Translations under genes and position numbers: made by a program
Notes under the pieces: model-generated
What the model saw: the letters and a program-made list of their open reading frames with translations, nothing else
Told to the model about the DNA's origin: nothing
The model's database searches: none
From: Escherichia coli
GTDB taxonomy: Bacteria; Pseudomonadota; Gammaproteobacteria; Enterobacterales; Enterobacteriaceae
DNA length: 64,000 nucleotides
Direction: 5' to 3' (one strand)
NCBI RefSeq assembly: GCF_011045215.1
Contig: NZ_CP049201.1
Shown here: positions 10,477 to 16,780 of the stretch, piece by piece
How the letters are laid out: the number at the start of each line of letters is the position of its first letter
Position numbering within the stretch: position 1 is the first letter of the stretch

Positions 10477-11189
10477 CTCTTATAATTGGCATTATTCATT
10501 CAAGAACAATAGGATCTTCGCTTGTACAAGCGAAGCTATAATAAAAACAATCAATTAATTATTTTAAAAGTATTAAACAAGAACCTATTGACATTCATAA
10601 AATACAAGTTATTTATAATGTATGCCATAAATAAAAAGTTTTATGTCATATGTATCCTGCACTATGTGCAGTTAATGTACCACTTGTCCCATAGATGGGA
10701 ATATTGGAAAGGTTACTTTGTTTTGAAGTAGCCTTTCGTCCTTCAATATTAACGATTACTTATTGCTATTACCAAGTCCAGTCGAATCGAAGAACATCTT
10801 TTATCTGAAACGACTCCTAATACCCGGTTAAAGCCACAATAACTCTCGCATACGTAGACCAAAGAAAAATTATGATATTAAATATGTGATTTTTTTTAGT
10901 GTTAAGTTGAATAATTAAATACTGGAGAGTTTTCTGTGCACTACCAATTGCTGGTTCATCTGTTCTGCCGCTGATGTTTCTGACGAATCTCCCGGTGACA
11001 CAGAACTGTCCCTCTCTACCAGCCTTTATTCGACTCAATGTCCGGCTGCTGATACGCAGTTATCCCTTCGTATCAATGACTGACACTTAAACGTAATGCT
11101 TTGGTTGCTGGCGTATCTGACAGCTTCTTCGGCGTGAAGGTCGTTGTGTAAGTATACTTCTTGGTTTATTTAGGCTATATAAAACATGA

Positions 11190-12086
11190 CTATGACTTGC
11201 TGTTTTCAGTAAGAGTCTTATCATCCAAAGAATTTATTCTAGAAATTCTTTTTAACTCATTAAGATAATCAACCTCGTTTTCTAAGAACCAATGAAGAAC
11301 TTTAGAATTGCCAAGTAATTTATTAATATATGACTGGATTATAACGAATTTCAACATATCTGAACCATACTCGGTTTGAAGCTTTTTCGTTTCTTCCGAA
11401 GTTGTTGCCATTTCTTGTTCCAGACGAAGTATGGTTTTTTTTATATCCTTTTTATAGGGAGTGTTTTTCCCTTTATTTACTATCATCGATGCCGGTGTTG
11501 CATCCAAGATGCTCATTGCAAATTTTTTACTATAATTATCAAAATTAATCATTGTACCGACTGCTTCAATTTGGCGAATTGGCTTCATTTTCCTCAAAAC
11601 GTCAAATGTAGCCTTAGGTATAGGTTTATCAGAAAGTTTCGCAATTACACTTGGATCTATGCCGTTCATCACATTCGCTTTATCTTTTATGGCATCAACA
11701 GATATGCCCAAAGCAGCACTAAGTTTTTCAATTGATACTTTTGCCAGAGACTTAATTATCATTCTATGTTCTTCAACTACATTTATATGATTCACTTGTT
11801 TGTTAGGAGTGAAAGCATCATCTATGCTCGAAAGTATACATGGAGCTTTTTCTATACCTAAGTCTTTTAAAGCCTCAACCCTTAAATGGCCATCAAGTAT
11901 CTTAGTGACATCTTTATCTTTGTCATAGAATACTATTATTGGTTCAATAATACCTAAGCTTTCGATAGAGGTAACTATTTGATGATATTTATGGCTTCGC
12001 TTTACGTTTTCTAATAATTCCTTAGATGGAATTAACTTATTAGTTTCCAGGTAAATAAAATTATCGCCAAAACGTATCTGAATCAT
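11190..12086 (-). CDS. ParB/sulfiredoxin-fold N-terminal domain protein, 298 aa (third gene of recombinase operon)
   Basis: ParB-N-like motifs: SIESLGIIEPIIV...KILDGHLRVEALKDLG; 4-nt overlap with upstream gene. Confidence 0.6.
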   Translation of the reverse strand: MIQIRFGDNFIYLETNKLIPSKELLENVKRSHKYHQIVTSIESLGIIEPIIVFYDKDKDVTKILDGHLRVEALKDLGIEKAPCILSSIDDAFTPNKQVNHINVVEEHRMIIKSLAKVSIEKLSAALGISVDAIKDKANVMNGIDPSVIAKLSDKPIPKATFDVLRKMKPIRQIEAVGTMINFDNYSKKFAMSILDATPASMIVNKGKNTPYKKDIKKTILRLEQEMATTSEETKKLQTEYGSDMLKFVIIQSYINKLLGNSKVLHWFLENEVDYLNELKRISRINSLDDKTLTENSKS

Positions 12087-12979
12087 TTTAATACCTCTTT
12101 GTTTACTGGGGTTAATATCTGAGATGGTAGTTCTGAAAGATTCTCTTGTTCAAGTATATGTTGAAAGCTTTTATTCATCATTATGATGTTAAAAATCTCA
12201 TTTACTATTAGTAGGTTGGTTTTTATGAATTTTGAGTTGTTATAAACAGATTTATGTTCAGCGATACTATTTTCATAAAGCTCAATCAACTCCTCTGCAG
12301 TCATCCTTTTTGATGGTTTGTGATAATAAAATCCGGCTGCTTTTGCACCTTTATTCCCAACTGTTCTTTGATTTAGAATGTGTTTTATCTTTATAATGTC
12401 CCGACTTTTTATTAATTTTTTATCATATGCTTCGGTAAGAATATCTTGTGCTTCCTCAGTTTCACATCTTGCAAATTGCACTGCGAGATACAGAGGCAAA
12501 TTACCCCGTTCGACTGCTGAGAGAAGTTTATGCTCTCCCTTATCAAGTAGCATATTAATACTGCTCACCCAGTTCGATGAATATCCAGTAATCTCACTTA
12601 TTTCGGAGTCTGAAAGTCCTCTGATTTTCATGTCTTTAATCACCTGTAATAACTCATTAGAACGTGGTCTTCTCCTTGCAATGTTTTCAACTAAACTCAT
12701 AACGTAAGCATCTTCTTCTGATACATCTCTTATAATTGCTGGAATAATAGTTTCACCTAATGCAACGAGAGCCTCTATTCTCCCTTGACCACAAATTAAA
12801 GCATATTTGAAATCGCCTTCATCAATAGCTCTTACGCTTATAGGCTTGCTTAATCCTCTTTTTTTTATGCTTTCCTTTATTTCTTCATGCACTAACTTAT
12901 TTCTTGTTCGTGGGTTAAGAAATTTTATTTTTGCAATCTCAATTTGAATTATTGGGAATTCATTTTTTTCAGGCAGCAT
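12083..12979 (-). CDS. ParB-like N-terminal domain protein, 298 aa (second gene of recombinase operon)
   Basis: ParB-N-like layout: IEIAKIKFLNPRTRN...SIKKRGLSKPISVRAIDEG.FKYALICGQGRIEALVALGETIIPAIIRDVSEEDAYVMSLVENIARRR; 11-nt overlap with recombinase gene. Confidence 0.65.
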   Translation of the reverse strand: MLPEKNEFPIIQIEIAKIKFLNPRTRNKLVHEEIKESIKKRGLSKPISVRAIDEGDFKYALICGQGRIEALVALGETIIPAIIRDVSEEDAYVMSLVENIARRRPRSNELLQVIKDMKIRGLSDSEISEITGYSSNWVSSINMLLDKGEHKLLSAVERGNLPLYLAVQFARCETEEAQDILTEAYDKKLIKSRDIIKIKHILNQRTVGNKGAKAAGFYYHKPSKRMTAEELIELYENSIAEHKSVYNNSKFIKTNLLIVNEIFNIIMMNKSFQHILEQENLSELPSQILTPVNKEVLK

Positions 12980-14525
12980 ATAGTTCCCTCACTTTCATGC
13001 GAGTAATAATTTGTAGAAGTTTATCAAGATTATCAAATCTATAGAGATCTAATCGAATGTTGTTTGTTTCCGTCATGCACATTTTATTATATTCGTTTTC
13101 AATCTTTGGTATGATATAAAAATCAAGAGGTGAAATATTTTGTGAATTCATTCGTATAACAATTGTTATGTCTGCTTTCTGTGAGTTATCAAACCGGACT
13201 TTCCATCTAAGTTTACCTGATTTCATATGTATGCATTTAGTAACAAGGACGGAAATTAAAAACTCATCATTGATGTAAAGCATTGGGGCATATTTATACT
13301 CGTCTATATGACAGTTACTTTTTAAAATTTCACCCTTAAAATCCTCAATTATCTCTGAGTGAAATGATCTTAGTGCTTCATTTATTTTGAGATAGCTGTA
13401 ATCATGTTCTGGCTTATAACCAATCAAAGTATATGCTCTTAAAAGACCACCAAATCGGGTTCTATAAACAGAAGATGAAGGGCCTGTATCATCTTCATCA
13501 ATGATAAAGCCTGATAGTTTTCCATTAGATTCTAATTTTTGTTTTAGTTTTTCTAATAGATCTTCATTAGTCAAATGAATGGATCGGAGCTGAATTATTT
13601 CTTGAGCTTTATTGTATTTTTTCTTTGAAATAATAGGTTTATATGCCTTGTCACATCTAACCCATTCATGTTTGGGGTTTTTTACAAGCCTACTTTTTAA
13701 TTTAGATGAGGTTTTGTTATATATGTTGTTTCCAATATATTTTTCATTTGTCAAAATTTGATGTATTTTTGCACGAGTCCATAATGTTCCATTTTCTGCA
13801 GGTATGTTCTGTTCATTTAATCTCTCAGCAATAATGAATTCTGGGACGTTATTATCTATAAAGAGATCATATATTCTATTTACAATTTTTATTTCATTTT
13901 TTGGTCCCGGAATTAATATTACCCTATCTGTTTGAATACTCTTTCTTTTGCGGAAACTCAATATTTCTTTAGCTATGCCATTTTCGTCTACTAAAAGACG
14001 TCTCAGCCCATAACCAGCCATACCGCCTTGATGATAACCAAGCTTTATTAAATTTACTTGCCCTATAAATACCTTTTCAGATAAATTCCTGCTGTGATAT
14101 GCAGCACTAGATCTTTTTATATTCAGTATAACAGAGGACTCTAAAGGGAAATCTTTAGTGGGTATAGGTTCGGAACAATATATAAGATCTACACCATTTC
14201 TCTCAAATAGAAAGGAATAATATGCCGCTTCATCACTATTTTGAAAACGACCAAAACGGCTCACATCATAAAATAATACAGCCTGTATATCTATTTTCTT
14301 TTGTTCTACATCGCTAAGTAACTGCTGCAAAGAATGCCTGCCTACGATACTGACTCCGCTCTTACCTGCATCATCGTAGGTATAAGCGATTTCCATATTG
14401 TTCTTTTCAGCATAATCTTTGATATATTCGGACTGATTATGTAAAGAATATTGCTGATGGTCGGTAGACATCCTCAAGTACTGCGCGACCCTAACTCTAT
14501 GATTTTTGTCATTTTCGCTAGCCAT
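12969..14525 (-). CDS. Large serine recombinase (resolvase/invertase catalytic domain plus long C-terminal extension), 518 aa
   Basis: N-terminal serine-recombinase motifs (YLRMSTDHQ with candidate catalytic Ser, YDDAGKSG, VLFYDVSRFGR); size fits large serine recombinases, not small invertases. Confidence 0.75.
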   Translation of the reverse strand: MASENDKNHRVRVAQYLRMSTDHQQYSLHNQSEYIKDYAEKNNMEIAYTYDDAGKSGVSIVGRHSLQQLLSDVEQKKIDIQAVLFYDVSRFGRFQNSDEAAYYSFLFERNGVDLIYCSEPIPTKDFPLESSVILNIKRSSAAYHSRNLSEKVFIGQVNLIKLGYHQGGMAGYGLRRLLVDENGIAKEILSFRKRKSIQTDRVILIPGPKNEIKIVNRIYDLFIDNNVPEFIIAERLNEQNIPAENGTLWTRAKIHQILTNEKYIGNNIYNKTSSKLKSRLVKNPKHEWVRCDKAYKPIISKKKYNKAQEIIQLRSIHLTNEDLLEKLKQKLESNGKLSGFIIDEDDTGPSSSVYRTRFGGLLRAYTLIGYKPEHDYSYLKINEALRSFHSEIIEDFKGEILKSNCHIDEYKYAPMLYINDEFLISVLVTKCIHMKSGKLRWKVRFDNSQKADITIVIRMNSQNISPLDFYIIPKIENEYNKMCMTETNNIRLDLYRFDNLDKLLQIITRMKVRELYAA

Positions 14526-14696
14526 GCACGAAACCTCATGGGTGATTCAATACAATGTAGAGGATAAAATTGATCAAATTTTAACCGAATTCAACTGTTT
14601 TATCATTGATTAGAGCGAATTTGGTAGATCTTCGAGGTGTATGATAATCGAGAAGAGATGTGAATTATTTAGCTGATATGACCGACAGCTTTCGTT

Positions 14697-14744
14697 ATGT
14701 GGACTCAATGTCCCCATTTGTAAATGGCTATGCTTAGTCCACAT
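14697..14744. promoter_or_regulatory. Nested palindromic site upstream of the serine recombinase gene (candidate recombination site or operator)
   Basis: Perfect 9-bp inverted repeat atgtggact (14697-14705) / agtccacat (14736-14744) around inner palindrome ccatttgtaaatgg; 172 bp upstream of the recombinase start. Confidence 0.5.
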
Positions 14745-14807
14745 AGGTTAATGGTGTGATTATTAATTCTTTAACTAAATCAAGATAGTTAATCCATCAT
14801 GGGAGAG

Positions 14808-16037
14808 TTATGCGGCAATAACTTTGCATTTTTGAGACGAAACATAGTCACTCCACCATTGCATGAGAACCACCCGTTCAGTGAGATACTCTGCACGATT
14901 GTAGGCTGCAATTATTTCATCTTTCTTCGAGTGGGCAAGGGCGGCTTCTAAGACATCAGTCCTAAACTTGCCAGACTCCTCAGCAGCCGTTCTAGCAATG
15001 GATCGCATACCGTGAGCTACAAGCTCACCTCCGAAACCCATACGGATTATGGCCGCATTAGCTGTTTGTTCATGCATGTGATTGAGTGGAGCTTTGATAC
15101 TGGGGAACACCCACTCTCTATGCCCGCTGATGACTTTCATTAAATCCAAAACTCGCAAAGCTTCTTTGCTCAGTGGAACTTTGTGAGGCTTCTTCATTTT
15201 CATAAACTCCGCCGGGATGTTCCACATGCCAGTTTCAATATCAATATCTGACCATCTTGTGCGAACAGCTTCACCTGGGCGAACCCATGTGAGAAGTTGC
15301 CACTCAATCAGTAGCCTTGTTTCCAAACGGATAGAAGCATTGTTTAGAGCAACCAAGAAGCGAGGGAGTTCGGAAGGGGGTAATGCTGGCATATTCTGTT
15401 TTTTTGGCTTGCTGAACCGTTGCCCCAGGTTGTCTGCCGGGTTGAATTCTATGAGTTCTTCTGTTGCTGCATAGCGGAAAATTTCATTCAGGCGGGATAT
15501 GATGCGGCGAAGTGTTTCAAGGACACCTCGTTTTTCTATGGGTTCTAAATGCTGTTTAAGCATTTTAGGGCGAATCTCCTTAATTGGGGTATCACCCAAT
15601 GTGGAAAAGATATTTCTCTCTAGGCTTCGCCAGATGTCGTTAGCATGATCTTGGGAGATGCCTGACGTTTTGACTTTCTCATCAAGCCACTTCTTGGCTA
15701 CTGCTTGAAATGTATGTTCCGTGGCATCTTTCAGTGCATTGGCTTTTTGGTTGTTATGAACTTGGGGGTCTATACCATTTGTAAGCAACGACAAGTATTC
15801 ATCACGTAAAGCTCGTGCCTTCGCAAGTGTAAGGTGAGGATAGGTTCCTAAGCTCACCTTAGTTCGCTTTTTGGTCACAGGCACTGCATATCTGAAATAC
15901 CAATTTTTCTTCCCTCCCTTCGCCAGGGGAGCGATTCGCAACAGCAAACCATCGCCGTCAAAAAGGTTAACCTCTTTTTCGGCAGGTTTGGTGCTTTTGA
16001 TTTCAGTGTCAGTGAGCTTCTTAGCGATTTTGGCCAT
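14808..16037 (-). CDS. int: Site-specific tyrosine integrase (P4-type), next to ssrA
   Basis: ORF 14808..16118; likely start is Met at 16037 (MAKIAKKLTDTEIK...); C-terminal catalytic region with conserved R...H.xR...Y context (HGMRSIARTAAEE...ALAHSKKDEI..AYNRAEY); classic tmRNA-site location. Confidence 0.85.
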   Translation of the reverse strand: MAKIAKKLTDTEIKSTKPAEKEVNLFDGDGLLLRIAPLAKGGKKNWYFRYAVPVTKKRTKVSLGTYPHLTLAKARALRDEYLSLLTNGIDPQVHNNQKANALKDATEHTFQAVAKKWLDEKVKTSGISQDHANDIWRSLERNIFSTLGDTPIKEIRPKMLKQHLEPIEKRGVLETLRRIISRLNEIFRYAATEELIEFNPADNLGQRFSKPKKQNMPALPPSELPRFLVALNNASIRLETRLLIEWQLLTWVRPGEAVRTRWSDIDIETGMWNIPAEFMKMKKPHKVPLSKEALRVLDLMKVISGHREWVFPSIKAPLNHMHEQTANAAIIRMGFGGELVAHGMRSIARTAAEESGKFRTDVLEAALAHSKKDEIIAAYNRAEYLTERVVLMQWWSDYVSSQKCKVIAA

Positions 16038-16203
16038 GTTTGGGACCCTCGATTTTAGGACCCATCTTCGTGGGTCCCATTCAGGGTGCCATAACTCGTA
16101 GTTCTCAGCAATTCTCACTAGACTACAATAGACGTAAAAAAGCCCGCAGAGCTTGTGCTGTGCGGGCTTAGTAGACTTTACTGAACTTCAGTACATCAAT
16201 ATT

Positions 16204-16565
16204 TGGTGGAGCTGGCGGGAGTTGAACCCGCGTCCGAAATTCCTACATCCTCGGTACTACATGCTTAGTCAGTCTTTACATTCGCTTGCCAGCTGCGGAC
16301 GGACACGCCACTAACAAACTAGCCTGATTAAGTTTTAACGCTTCAACCCCAGGCAGGGCTTCCACGCGATCTCTTTTGGGTTTGACCTCTCTTGATCCCC
16401 GTCCTAAGAGCGGAGGCTAGGGAGAGAGGGCTCTAAGCAGGTTATTAAGCTGCTAAAGCGTAGTTTTCGTCGTTTGCGACTATTTTTTGCGGCTTTTTAC
16501 GAGGCCAACCGCCCCTCGGCATGCACCTTGGGTTTCGCAAATCCCGTCGAATCCAGAATCAGCCC
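16204..16565 (-). ncRNA. ssrA: tmRNA (SsrA), transfer-messenger RNA
   Basis: Reverse complement of 16565 downward begins GGGGCTGATTCTGGATTCGACGGG; 3' end ...GCTCCACCA is the reverse complement of 16204-16212; tag ORF ANDENYALAA region recognisable. Confidence 0.95.
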
Positions 16566-16780
16566 CAATGTGTAAAGGTAAGTATACCAGATTTATGAGC
16601 GCCATGACCAGCCTCAATGGCGTTATCGTTAAAGATTTAGCACCCATGTAGCCTGATTTTTATTCGATTAAGCAATGGGATGGCAACATTTGTGTCGGAT
16701 GTGATAGCCAATAAGATGTTCATTCGCGCCGCCGGAGAGGGAGGCGCGGTGAGGAACTGGTCAATAATTGGAGTGCAGGT

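Follow-up and report, generated by a model that had tools for sequence, protein, structure and literature searches.

A widespread operon that couples a large serine recombinase to two ParB-like paralogues on proteobacterial genomic islands

The window analysed here is a stretch of 64,000 nucleotides (nt) from the Escherichia coli contig NZ_CP049201.1 (assembly GCF_011045215.1), in which a first-pass annotation, made from the sequence alone, had pointed out two ParB-like genes in tandem. We found that the object to explain is a three-gene operon, with the gene for a large serine recombinase (LSR) in first position and the two ParB-like genes, here called ParB1 and ParB2, as its distal two-thirds. 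The pair is not a partition oddity that lacks ParA, but belongs to a recombinase operon that travels on mobile islands. What is firmly established is descriptive: LSR, ParB1 and ParB2 (hereafter the trio) constitute a widespread, tightly coupled and strongly selected operon that is exchanged as a unit. Regarding its function we tentatively favour a reading, to which we would give somewhat less than an even chance, in which ParB1 and ParB2 form a heteromeric nucleoside triphosphate (NTP)-gated clamp of the KorB/BisD kind that licenses or targets the LSR for recombination other than island integration. The operon is apparently uncharacterised, with parts that come from known families, and the full-text literature, with most subscription journals outside its coverage, yielded no paper in which ParB proteins are described as partners of a serine recombinase. 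The three genes are located in the window as follows:

12969..14525, minus strand: LSR, large serine recombinase of 518 amino acids (aa), first gene of the operon.
12083..12979, minus strand: ParB1, 298 aa, second gene, from the list of open reading frames (ORFs).
11190..12086, minus strand: ParB2, 298 aa, third gene, from the ORF list.

The LSR stop and the ParB1 start overlap by 11 nt, and at the ParB1/ParB2 junction (AAAATGATT) the ATG of ParB2 lies over the TGA of ParB1, giving a 4-nt overlap (ATGA). The ORF list and the junction sequence confirm the two adjacent ParB-like ORFs of 298 codons and their ATGA overlap as described in the first-pass annotation. The duplicated pair is thus real, but the third gene, the LSR at 12969..14525, had been overlooked. 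The equal length of the two ParBs, which had been pointed out as well, is a coincidence of the E. coli clade, as none of the 62 other complete-trio loci has a pair of equal length. The trio and the cargo next to it have a GC content of 32-35%, compared to ~50% for the E. coli core genome. The names given by NCBI are 'recombinase family protein', 'ParB/RepB/Spo0J family partition protein' and 'RepB C-terminal domain-containing'.

The trio is present in 660 of 5426 complete E. coli genomes, exclusively on the chromosome, and is intact in strains BL21 and E24377A. Relatives of ParB1 at ~40% identity were found in Geobacter, Sphingomonas, Pseudomonas, Stenotrophomonas, rhizobia and Acidobacteria. 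A pattern scan with one genome per species yielded at least 587 confirmed loci, and a ParB2 profile search 543 cluster representatives at E≤1e-30. For the detailed analysis ~80 loci from alpha-, beta- and gamma-proteobacteria, Geobacter and Acidobacteria were retained, and in every one of these with flanking DNA present the three genes co-occur in the order LSR-ParB1-ParB2, most commonly joined by 4-nt or 1-nt overlaps. Between 54 and 68 plasmids carry the trio, mostly large alpha- and beta-proteobacterial replicons of rhizobia, Agrobacterium and Sphingobium, among them pAtC58 of Agrobacterium fabrum C58. One genome of Pinisolibacter holds three copies. From phages the trio is essentially absent, with a single unverified match in 50,697 phage records. 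It was also seen on a 13-kb 'Lactiplantibacillus plasmid' record and a 7-kb 'Bacteriophage sp.' record, both of which are unannotated high-GC contigs and uninformative about its context.

Both ParBs are under strong purifying selection. Compared with an E. coli copy of 93-96% identity, the ratio of nonsynonymous to synonymous substitution rates (dN/dS) is 0.12 for the LSR, 0.08 for ParB1 and 0.04 for ParB2. For the 62 complete loci we compared the pairwise protein distances of the three genes and obtained Spearman coefficients of 0.83-0.92 (0.91 for ParB1 and ParB2), which were not reached in any of 300 permutations. The LSR, ParB1 and ParB2 are inherited and diverge as one unit.

The relationship between the two ParBs is barely visible in a direct BLASTP comparison (E 0.001, 30% identity over 63 aa). 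However, when profiles built from the collected relatives of each ParB were aligned with hhalign, the two families matched with 95.9% probability and E 6.4e-9 over 247 columns, nearly the full length. AlphaFold models of both proteins, with a mean predicted local distance difference test (pLDDT) score of 80 and 85, have one common three-part layout, consisting of a beta-alpha ParB/Srx domain, a helical helix-turn-helix (HTH) domain and a C-terminal helix of 40-50 residues. Judged by profiles and models, ParB1 and ParB2 are shown to be ancient paralogues over their full length.

The first-pass annotation had considered a diverged duplication with a shared domain layout, and this is borne out by the profile comparison and both structure models; the pairwise alignment gives relatedness beyond chance (hhalign E 6.4e-9), though BLASTP alone is weak. 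That one copy might be a pseudogene is excluded by the dN/dS values of 0.08 (ParB1) and 0.04 (ParB2). It had further suggested a heteromeric complex that binds or cleaves DNA. The heteromer receives indirect support from the co-occurrence of the two genes, their correlated distances (Spearman 0.91) and a rhizobial fusion protein described below, but for DNA cleavage we found no evidence, as the best structure and sequence matches are the CTP-switch (cytidine triphosphate) clamps ParB, Noc and KorB and not nucleases. The CTP-binding arginines present a mixed picture, with GxxR kept in both ParBs but two of the three arginines lost.

Both ParBs match the Pfam models ParB_N and RepB (5e-13 and 1e-7 for ParB1, 3e-5 and 3e-24 for ParB2), and in ParB2 the RepB match (PF07506) covers residues 98-270. 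Profile matches to the PDB entries of Spo0J, Noc, ParB and KorB reach 5e-20 for ParB1 and 7e-10 for ParB2. With Foldseek the best matches of both models are ParB, Noc and KorB in CTP- or CDP-bound form over ~200 residues, including the KorB-KorA structures 8qa8 and 8qa9. The sequence and fold matches to ParB/Spo0J, Noc and KorB span the N-terminal domain and the HTH domain.

In 70 ParB1 sequences the residues R24, R26, G64, G66, R67, E69, E98, N99 and R102 are invariant. They belong to an N-terminal Arg box (NPRxR), the sequence GQGRIEA in place of GERRxRA, and E-N-I-A-R-R as ENxxR box. Among 55 ParB2 sequences the invariant residues are D65, G66, R69, N95, Q172 and E225; the corresponding motif is DGHLRVEA, in which the His is not conserved, and box III reads N-K-R without its Glu, so that there is no ENxxR box. 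GxxR is invariant in all 70 ParB1 and 55 ParB2 sequences. This nucleotide-binding motif is essential in BisD, a clamp borne by an integrative and conjugative element (PMC12409273). By its motifs ParB1 would seem better equipped to bind CTP than ParB2, which is the more degenerate paralogue and has a strong match to the C-terminal part of RepB. The scores on TIGR00180 parB_part, the generic ParB domain model (cut-off 58.45 bits), are 60 bits for ParB1 and 34.7 for ParB2. On the RepB equivalog TIGR03454 ParB1 scores 35 bits, compared to a cut-off of 201. In ~12 Pfam-annotated trio neighbourhoods we found no ParA-type Walker ATPase, and the upstream gene was always the serine recombinase. With no ParA-type ATPase adjacent and scores on the RepB model far below the cut-off, the trio does not constitute a conventional partition system.

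The LSR contains the Pfam domains Resolvase (residues 14-152, 1e-21) and Recombinase (residues 210-312, 1e-21), and its catalytic Ser20, located within YLRMSTDHQ, is invariant. Large serine recombinases normally owe their site recognition and directionality to a zinc-ribbon/coiled-coil domain. No Pfam match was obtained past residue 312 and no conserved CxxC pairs are present in 21 sequences, and the profile matches to the solved structures of SprA, TP901-1, TnpX and phiC31 end at about position 321. The C-terminal ~200 residues are strongly conserved within the subfamily. At the sequence level the LSR is shown to have an intact catalytic domain and to be without the usual zinc-ribbon/coiled-coil domain. 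Most LSRs of the subfamily end in -AA (ELYAA in E. coli, window positions 12969-12980), similar to the ssrA-type degradation tag, and this ending might make the protein unstable.

A two-gene variant of the operon was found in Mesorhizobium and Bradyrhizobium (locus L120, 6527-7375; L134-L137). Here the LSR, which is of the same subfamily, overlaps by 4 nt with just one downstream gene. The product of this gene, a protein of ~280 aa, belongs to a family that comprises 36 clusters and diverges to 40-60% identity. Residues 28-102 of this protein match the C-terminal domain of ParB1 (95.3% probability, E 2e-8) and residues 118-269 match positions 152-302 of ParB2 (99.8% probability, E 2e-29), while the ParB N-terminal domain and the HTH are missing. 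Such a fusion of both C-terminal regions is a classic indirect sign and supports the notion that the separate ParBs would interact there. This variant also shows that a loss of the N-terminal and HTH domains is compatible with a retained link to the recombinase. In several alphaproteobacteria a small divergent gene of 130-210 aa (phrog_23106) is located 5' of the LSR (L096, 6967-7374; L004, 1340-1726; L057, 7658-8290; L076, 7957-8352). It is absent in E. coli and may be a fourth component. A plasmid of Massilia litorea (L121, 1839-8045) carries three tandem paralogous LSRs of the same subfamily and no ParB genes.

An all-against-all DNA comparison of the loci revealed many pairs that are alike in the trio only, with unrelated DNA on both sides. 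Two Stenotrophomonas maltophilia loci are 94% identical across 3467 nt, a segment that starts ~100 nt before the LSR and ends 2 nt past the ParB2 stop, and their neighbouring relaxases are only 69% identical. Three Pseudomonas pairs show 83-88% identity over ~3500 nt, and the trios of Morganella and Pluralibacter are 85% identical. The right breakpoint is nearly always located between -50 and +220 nt from the ParB2 stop, and the left one between about -70 nt and -5.8 kb from the LSR start. Judging from these alignments, the trio is exchanged between islands as a cassette of ~3.5 kb.

In the window the trio is part of an island integrated at ssrA, and the features on its integrase side are:

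14808..16118, minus strand: P4-type tyrosine integrase of the ssrA island (the RefSeq version is shorter, 1230 nt).
16204..16566, minus strand: ssrA (transfer-messenger RNA, tmRNA), integration target of the island.

Directly 3' of ssrA, at 16136-16213, there is a weak IsrM-like Rfam match (46 bits, gathering score 376), which is probably the attachment (att) region rather than a small RNA. In E. coli the trio is located directly after the integrase and before a type I restriction-modification (R-M) system. The block of integrase and trio is constant across E. coli, and this integrase allele of the ssrA island is always linked to the trio. In other E. coli strains the similarity to the window ends 50 nt to 1 kb past the ParB2 stop, at positions 11140, 11094, 10847, 10811, 10396 and 10151, and these break points mark the start of variable cargo. 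In E24377A the same island goes on with Kiwa, ankyrin genes and a relaxase, and in BL21 it is reduced to integrase, trio and IS1. E. coli ET791 (L094, 11712-16212) has a 93% identical trio inside a tRNA-Arg island with 3' fragments of P4-type integrase genes on both sides, an arrangement which suggests tandem accretion and decay of islands.

In S. maltophilia SJTL3 one end of an island of ~45 kb is formed by tRNA-Ser(GCU) with an adjacent DUF6538 tyrosine integrase, and the other by a 17-nt repeat of the 3' end of the tRNA. The trio is located at this far (repeat) end, and after it come a 107-aa gene and a MobA/MobL relaxase. Another island of S. maltophilia, at tRNA-Ser(GGA), comprises in this order integrase, type IV restriction enzyme, NYN protein, trio, 105-aa gene, MobA and PDC-S06. 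Both thus have the circular order integrase, trio, small ORF, relaxase and cargo in common. In the Pseudomonas fluorescens group (L112-L119) the island is inserted one nt past the gyrB stop, beside dnaA-dnaN-recF, with the junction at locus position 9082/9083. Here the trio begins 430 nt from the junction, with four GGRCAAAGTTAAYC repeats and a TTGACAnnnTGTCAA palindrome in between, and is followed by an archaeo-eukaryotic primase (AEP)-helicase gene. Several alphaproteobacteria carry a tyrosine integrase and an AlpA homologue 1-6 kb upstream of the trio. In single-sequence searches, integrases were found near 12 of 77 loci and relaxases near 3 of 77; since integrases are near just these 12, the position at an island edge can be claimed only for the loci studied in detail. 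As a candidate for the island integrase the LSR is ruled out in E. coli, where the P4-type enzyme is found at ssrA, and in S. maltophilia SJTL3, where the DUF6538 enzyme is found at tRNA-Ser; this rejection covers loci with both ends resolved, and the islands of Geobacter and P. fluorescens were visible at one end only.

On its other side the trio borders on defence genes, and the operon is carried by integrative, often mobilizable, islands and by megaplasmids, at the head of defence cargo. In the window the first cargo beyond the trio is:

3601..9594, minus strand: type I R-M system, context outside the operon.
8047-9594, minus strand: hsdM.
6899-8050, minus strand: hsdS.
5701-6840 and 3601-5646, minus strand: hsdR, split.

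Because hsdR is a single gene of 3240 nt in E24377A and is split into two ORFs in the window, the restriction subunit is probably inactivated in the window strain. Of 30 large flanking ORFs from ~25 loci, 16 have PADLOC matches. The families found beside the trio are Azaca ZacB/ZacC, Zorya ZorA, MzaC, a GajB-like helicase, type I, II and IV restriction enzymes, SoFic and PDC-S06, and other annotated contexts include AbiE, Dcm/Vsr/MvaI, TerB with a BrxC-like ATPase, GmrSD/HEPN, Kiwa and type I R-M. We also considered whether the trio is a known defence system, and rejected this as no PADLOC model matches the three proteins. With PADLOC-DB v2, candidate systems included, the LSR had no match, and the ParBs matched only the ParB-like N-terminal domain of type II methyltransferase models (7e-3 and 2e-7).

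Two further stretches border the operon directly:

14526..14807, minus strand: upstream control region from the integrase stop to the LSR start, from a sequence scan.
11140..11189, minus strand: short conserved tail 3' of the ParB2 stop, from the E. coli comparison.

A promoter-like site is located upstream of the LSR at 14578-14606. It is overlapped by a GATC-centred near-palindrome, AAAATTTGATCAATTTT (14569-14585), ~45-60 nt 5' of the LSR ATG, which may be an operator or a Dam-sensitive promoter; Citrobacter (L011) and Erwinia (L010) have similar palindromes, AAAAATGA/TCATTTTT. A 52-bp composite palindrome is located between the LSR and the stop of the integrase, at 14696-14745: TATGTGGACT-N8-CCATTT-AC-AAATGG-N8-AGTCCACATA (TATGTGGACT-N30-AGTCCACATA). 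It looks like a putative binding site for a recombinase or ParB, but it has no second copy within the window and other genera do not conserve it. We found no repeated parS-like or res-like sites, only local palindromes (14696-14745, 14569-14585 and TTGACAnnnTGTCAA in Pseudomonas), and none of these is conserved across clades. Beyond ParB2 a 1.2-kb AT-rich stretch (9962-11189) contains no credible ORF and has no Rfam match to an RNA gene, and it is followed by an IS3 transposase remnant at 9755-9961. An integrase remnant beyond ParB2 was rejected for the window, where the match is not significant; such a remnant exists only in strain ET791.

In the reading that we favour, ParB1 and ParB2 would form a hetero-oligomer via the helical regions at their C-termini, to which the fusion protein and the co-evolution of the two genes point. 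The pair would act as a DNA clamp of the KorB/BisD/Noc type that is asymmetric, gated by NTP (probably CTP) and loaded on the element's own DNA; we infer this from the presence of GxxR and HTH in both ParBs and, in ParB1, of the ENxxR and N-terminal Arg boxes as well. This clamp would license or target the co-translated LSR, which lacks a zinc-ribbon/coiled-coil of its own, and the resulting recombination would move or rearrange the cassette and its neighbouring cargo. Island integration is left to the tyrosine integrase, as shown for E. coli and Stenotrophomonas. It could even be imagined that the ParB1/ParB2 clamp replaces the zinc-ribbon/coiled-coil of the LSR as targeting and directionality device, and that the system moves the 3.5-kb cassette or captures and exchanges the downstream defence cargo in the manner of an integron platform, but in this specific form we consider the idea unlikely.

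Several observations weigh against a clamp that directs the recombinase. At the ends of the cassette no att-like site, shared core, terminal inverted repeat or half-sites were detected in 8 locus pairs, and palindrome scans 5' of the LSR in 20 loci returned none that is conserved across clades. The scattered breakpoints on the ParB2 side are as compatible with illegitimate or flank-driven exchange as with site-specific recombination, and conserved genes acting as homology arms would produce a similar picture of exchange. We found no clean empty site for the cassette alone, only one replacement in Stenotrophomonas, where a third S. maltophilia island with the same backbone at the tRNA-Ser(GCU) site has other genes in place of the trio (L101 compared with L102). 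The trio of E. coli is never seen to move apart from its integrase. Regarding the proteins, the GERR box has become GQGR in ParB1 and the ENxxR box is missing from ParB2, and the clamp cannot be essential in every lineage, since the rhizobial fusion has neither the N-terminal nor the HTH domain.

Three other explanations have to be taken seriously. In one of them the trio is itself an anti-phage or anti-plasmid defence: invading DNA would be sensed or clamped by the ParB pair, and broken or scrambled by the LSR. The trio is embedded in defence islands (16 of the 30 flanking ORFs match PADLOC) and can be swapped as a cassette like defence systems, with other genes in the same slot in one island; moreover, such a system may have been overlooked, given that genes for recombinases and ParB proteins are commonly discarded as mobilome. 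On the other hand no PADLOC model, candidates included, matches its proteins, we know of no defence system with a serine recombinase as effector, and the location at an island edge or beside the integrase, wherever resolved, fits a backbone gene better than random cargo. The single unverified match among the phage records speaks neither for nor against it. We regard a defence function as rather improbable. We are similarly doubtful about a stability module for the excised replicating island or for megaplasmids, in which the LSR would resolve multimers or cointegrates and the ParB pair would be a ParA-independent centromere-binding or segregation factor. The absence of a ParA-type ATPase from the ~12 annotated neighbourhoods, the score on the curated RepB model far below cut-off and the lack of repeated parS-like or res-like sites all argue against it, and enzymes with the 'Recombinase' domain usually serve as integrases or transposases and not as resolvases. 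It does have in its favour that plasmids commonly combine a resolvase with a partition protein, that both ParBs match the RepB partition family domain, that 54-68 mostly large plasmids carry the trio, and that host elements with relaxases (MobA/MobL) or an AEP primase-helicase are expected to have circular replicating forms.

The ParB pair could also be a transcriptional switch of the KorB/VirB/BisD type that activates or de-represses the adjacent AT-rich cargo, with an unrelated job for the LSR. The GC content of 32-35% in a genome of ~50% GC would agree with this, as AT-rich DNA of this kind is typically silenced by H-NS, and so would the start of variable cargo directly after ParB2. ParB-like CTP clamps on mobile elements are often regulators, for example VirB (PMC10770331), BisD on ICEclc (PMC12409273), HerB (PMC13370423) and KorB-KorA (8qa8/8qa9). 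Yet a switch leaves unexplained both the invariant coupling and co-evolution with the LSR and the fusion variant that lacks HTH and N-terminal domains but is still tied to an LSR, and the orientation of the cargo relative to the trio differs between loci; we therefore regard it as very unlikely.

If the clamp-directed recombinase proves true, the ParB-type CTP-switch fold, next to its jobs in KorB, VirB, BisD and HerB, would gain a new one in this conserved pair of recombinase-linked paralogues. An LSR subfamily whose specificity or direction is set by separate clamps would also be of practical interest, as LSRs are prized tools for genome engineering. In many proteobacterial islands the operon marks the entry to the defence-cargo region and may help to explain the turnover at these hotspots. 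Since the trio is intact in BL21 and E24377A, all hypotheses are directly testable in a standard laboratory strain.

The nearest published analogue is ResG of GIsul2/SGI1-type islands, a serine recombinase of unknown role that is dispensable for GIsul2 integration (PMC9376610). ResG is likewise located beside the tyrosine integrase of a guaA- or tRNA-targeting island, but differs in that no ParB partners are reported for GIsul2 (PMC9376610). The possibility that the LSR is ResG was rejected: because no IncC or GIsul2-bearing plasmid is among the LSR plasmid matches at E≤1e-30, the two belong to different subfamilies. With RepB of the rhizobial repABC operons (PF07506, TIGR03454) the trio shares the match of both ParBs to the RepB Pfam model; in contrast to RepB it has no adjacent repA or repC, reaches 35 versus 201 bits on the equivalog, and is exclusively chromosomal in E. 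coli.

Regarding the recombinase, the best solved relatives are TP901-1 integrase, TnpX and SprA, and a likeness exists to LSRs that act with accessory proteins, such as phage integrases with directionality factors, XisF with XisH/XisI, CcrA/CcrB and TnpX of Tn4451. They have the resolvase and Recombinase domains in common with the LSR of the trio, and the outcome of their reactions depends on small co-encoded partners. Unlike these, the LSR of the trio has no identified att sites, its C-terminal region of ~200 aa is specific to the subfamily, and its partners belong to the ParB family. BisD/BisC of ICEclc (PMC12409273) resembles the ParB pair in several respects: BisD is a ParB-like protein of an integrative element that binds NTP via GxxR, has a second element-encoded partner, and acts on the element's own DNA in a role other than partition. 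The differences are that BisC is no ParB paralogue, that the activator domain of BisD is not seen in the ParBs and that the BisD operon contains no recombinase; the comparison with BisD was made at the level of the shared family. Finally, KorB of RK2 (with KorA) and ParB/Noc share with the trio the ParB/Srx and HTH domains, GxxR in both ParBs and ENxxR in ParB1, and KorB is also carried on a mobile element. In contrast to these proteins the trio has no ParA/IncC partner and no identified parS or operator, and comprises two paralogues in place of one homodimer, with GQGRIEA (ParB1) and GHLRVEA (ParB2) for GERRxRA, a long C-terminal helix of the RepB C-terminal type, and translational coupling to an LSR.

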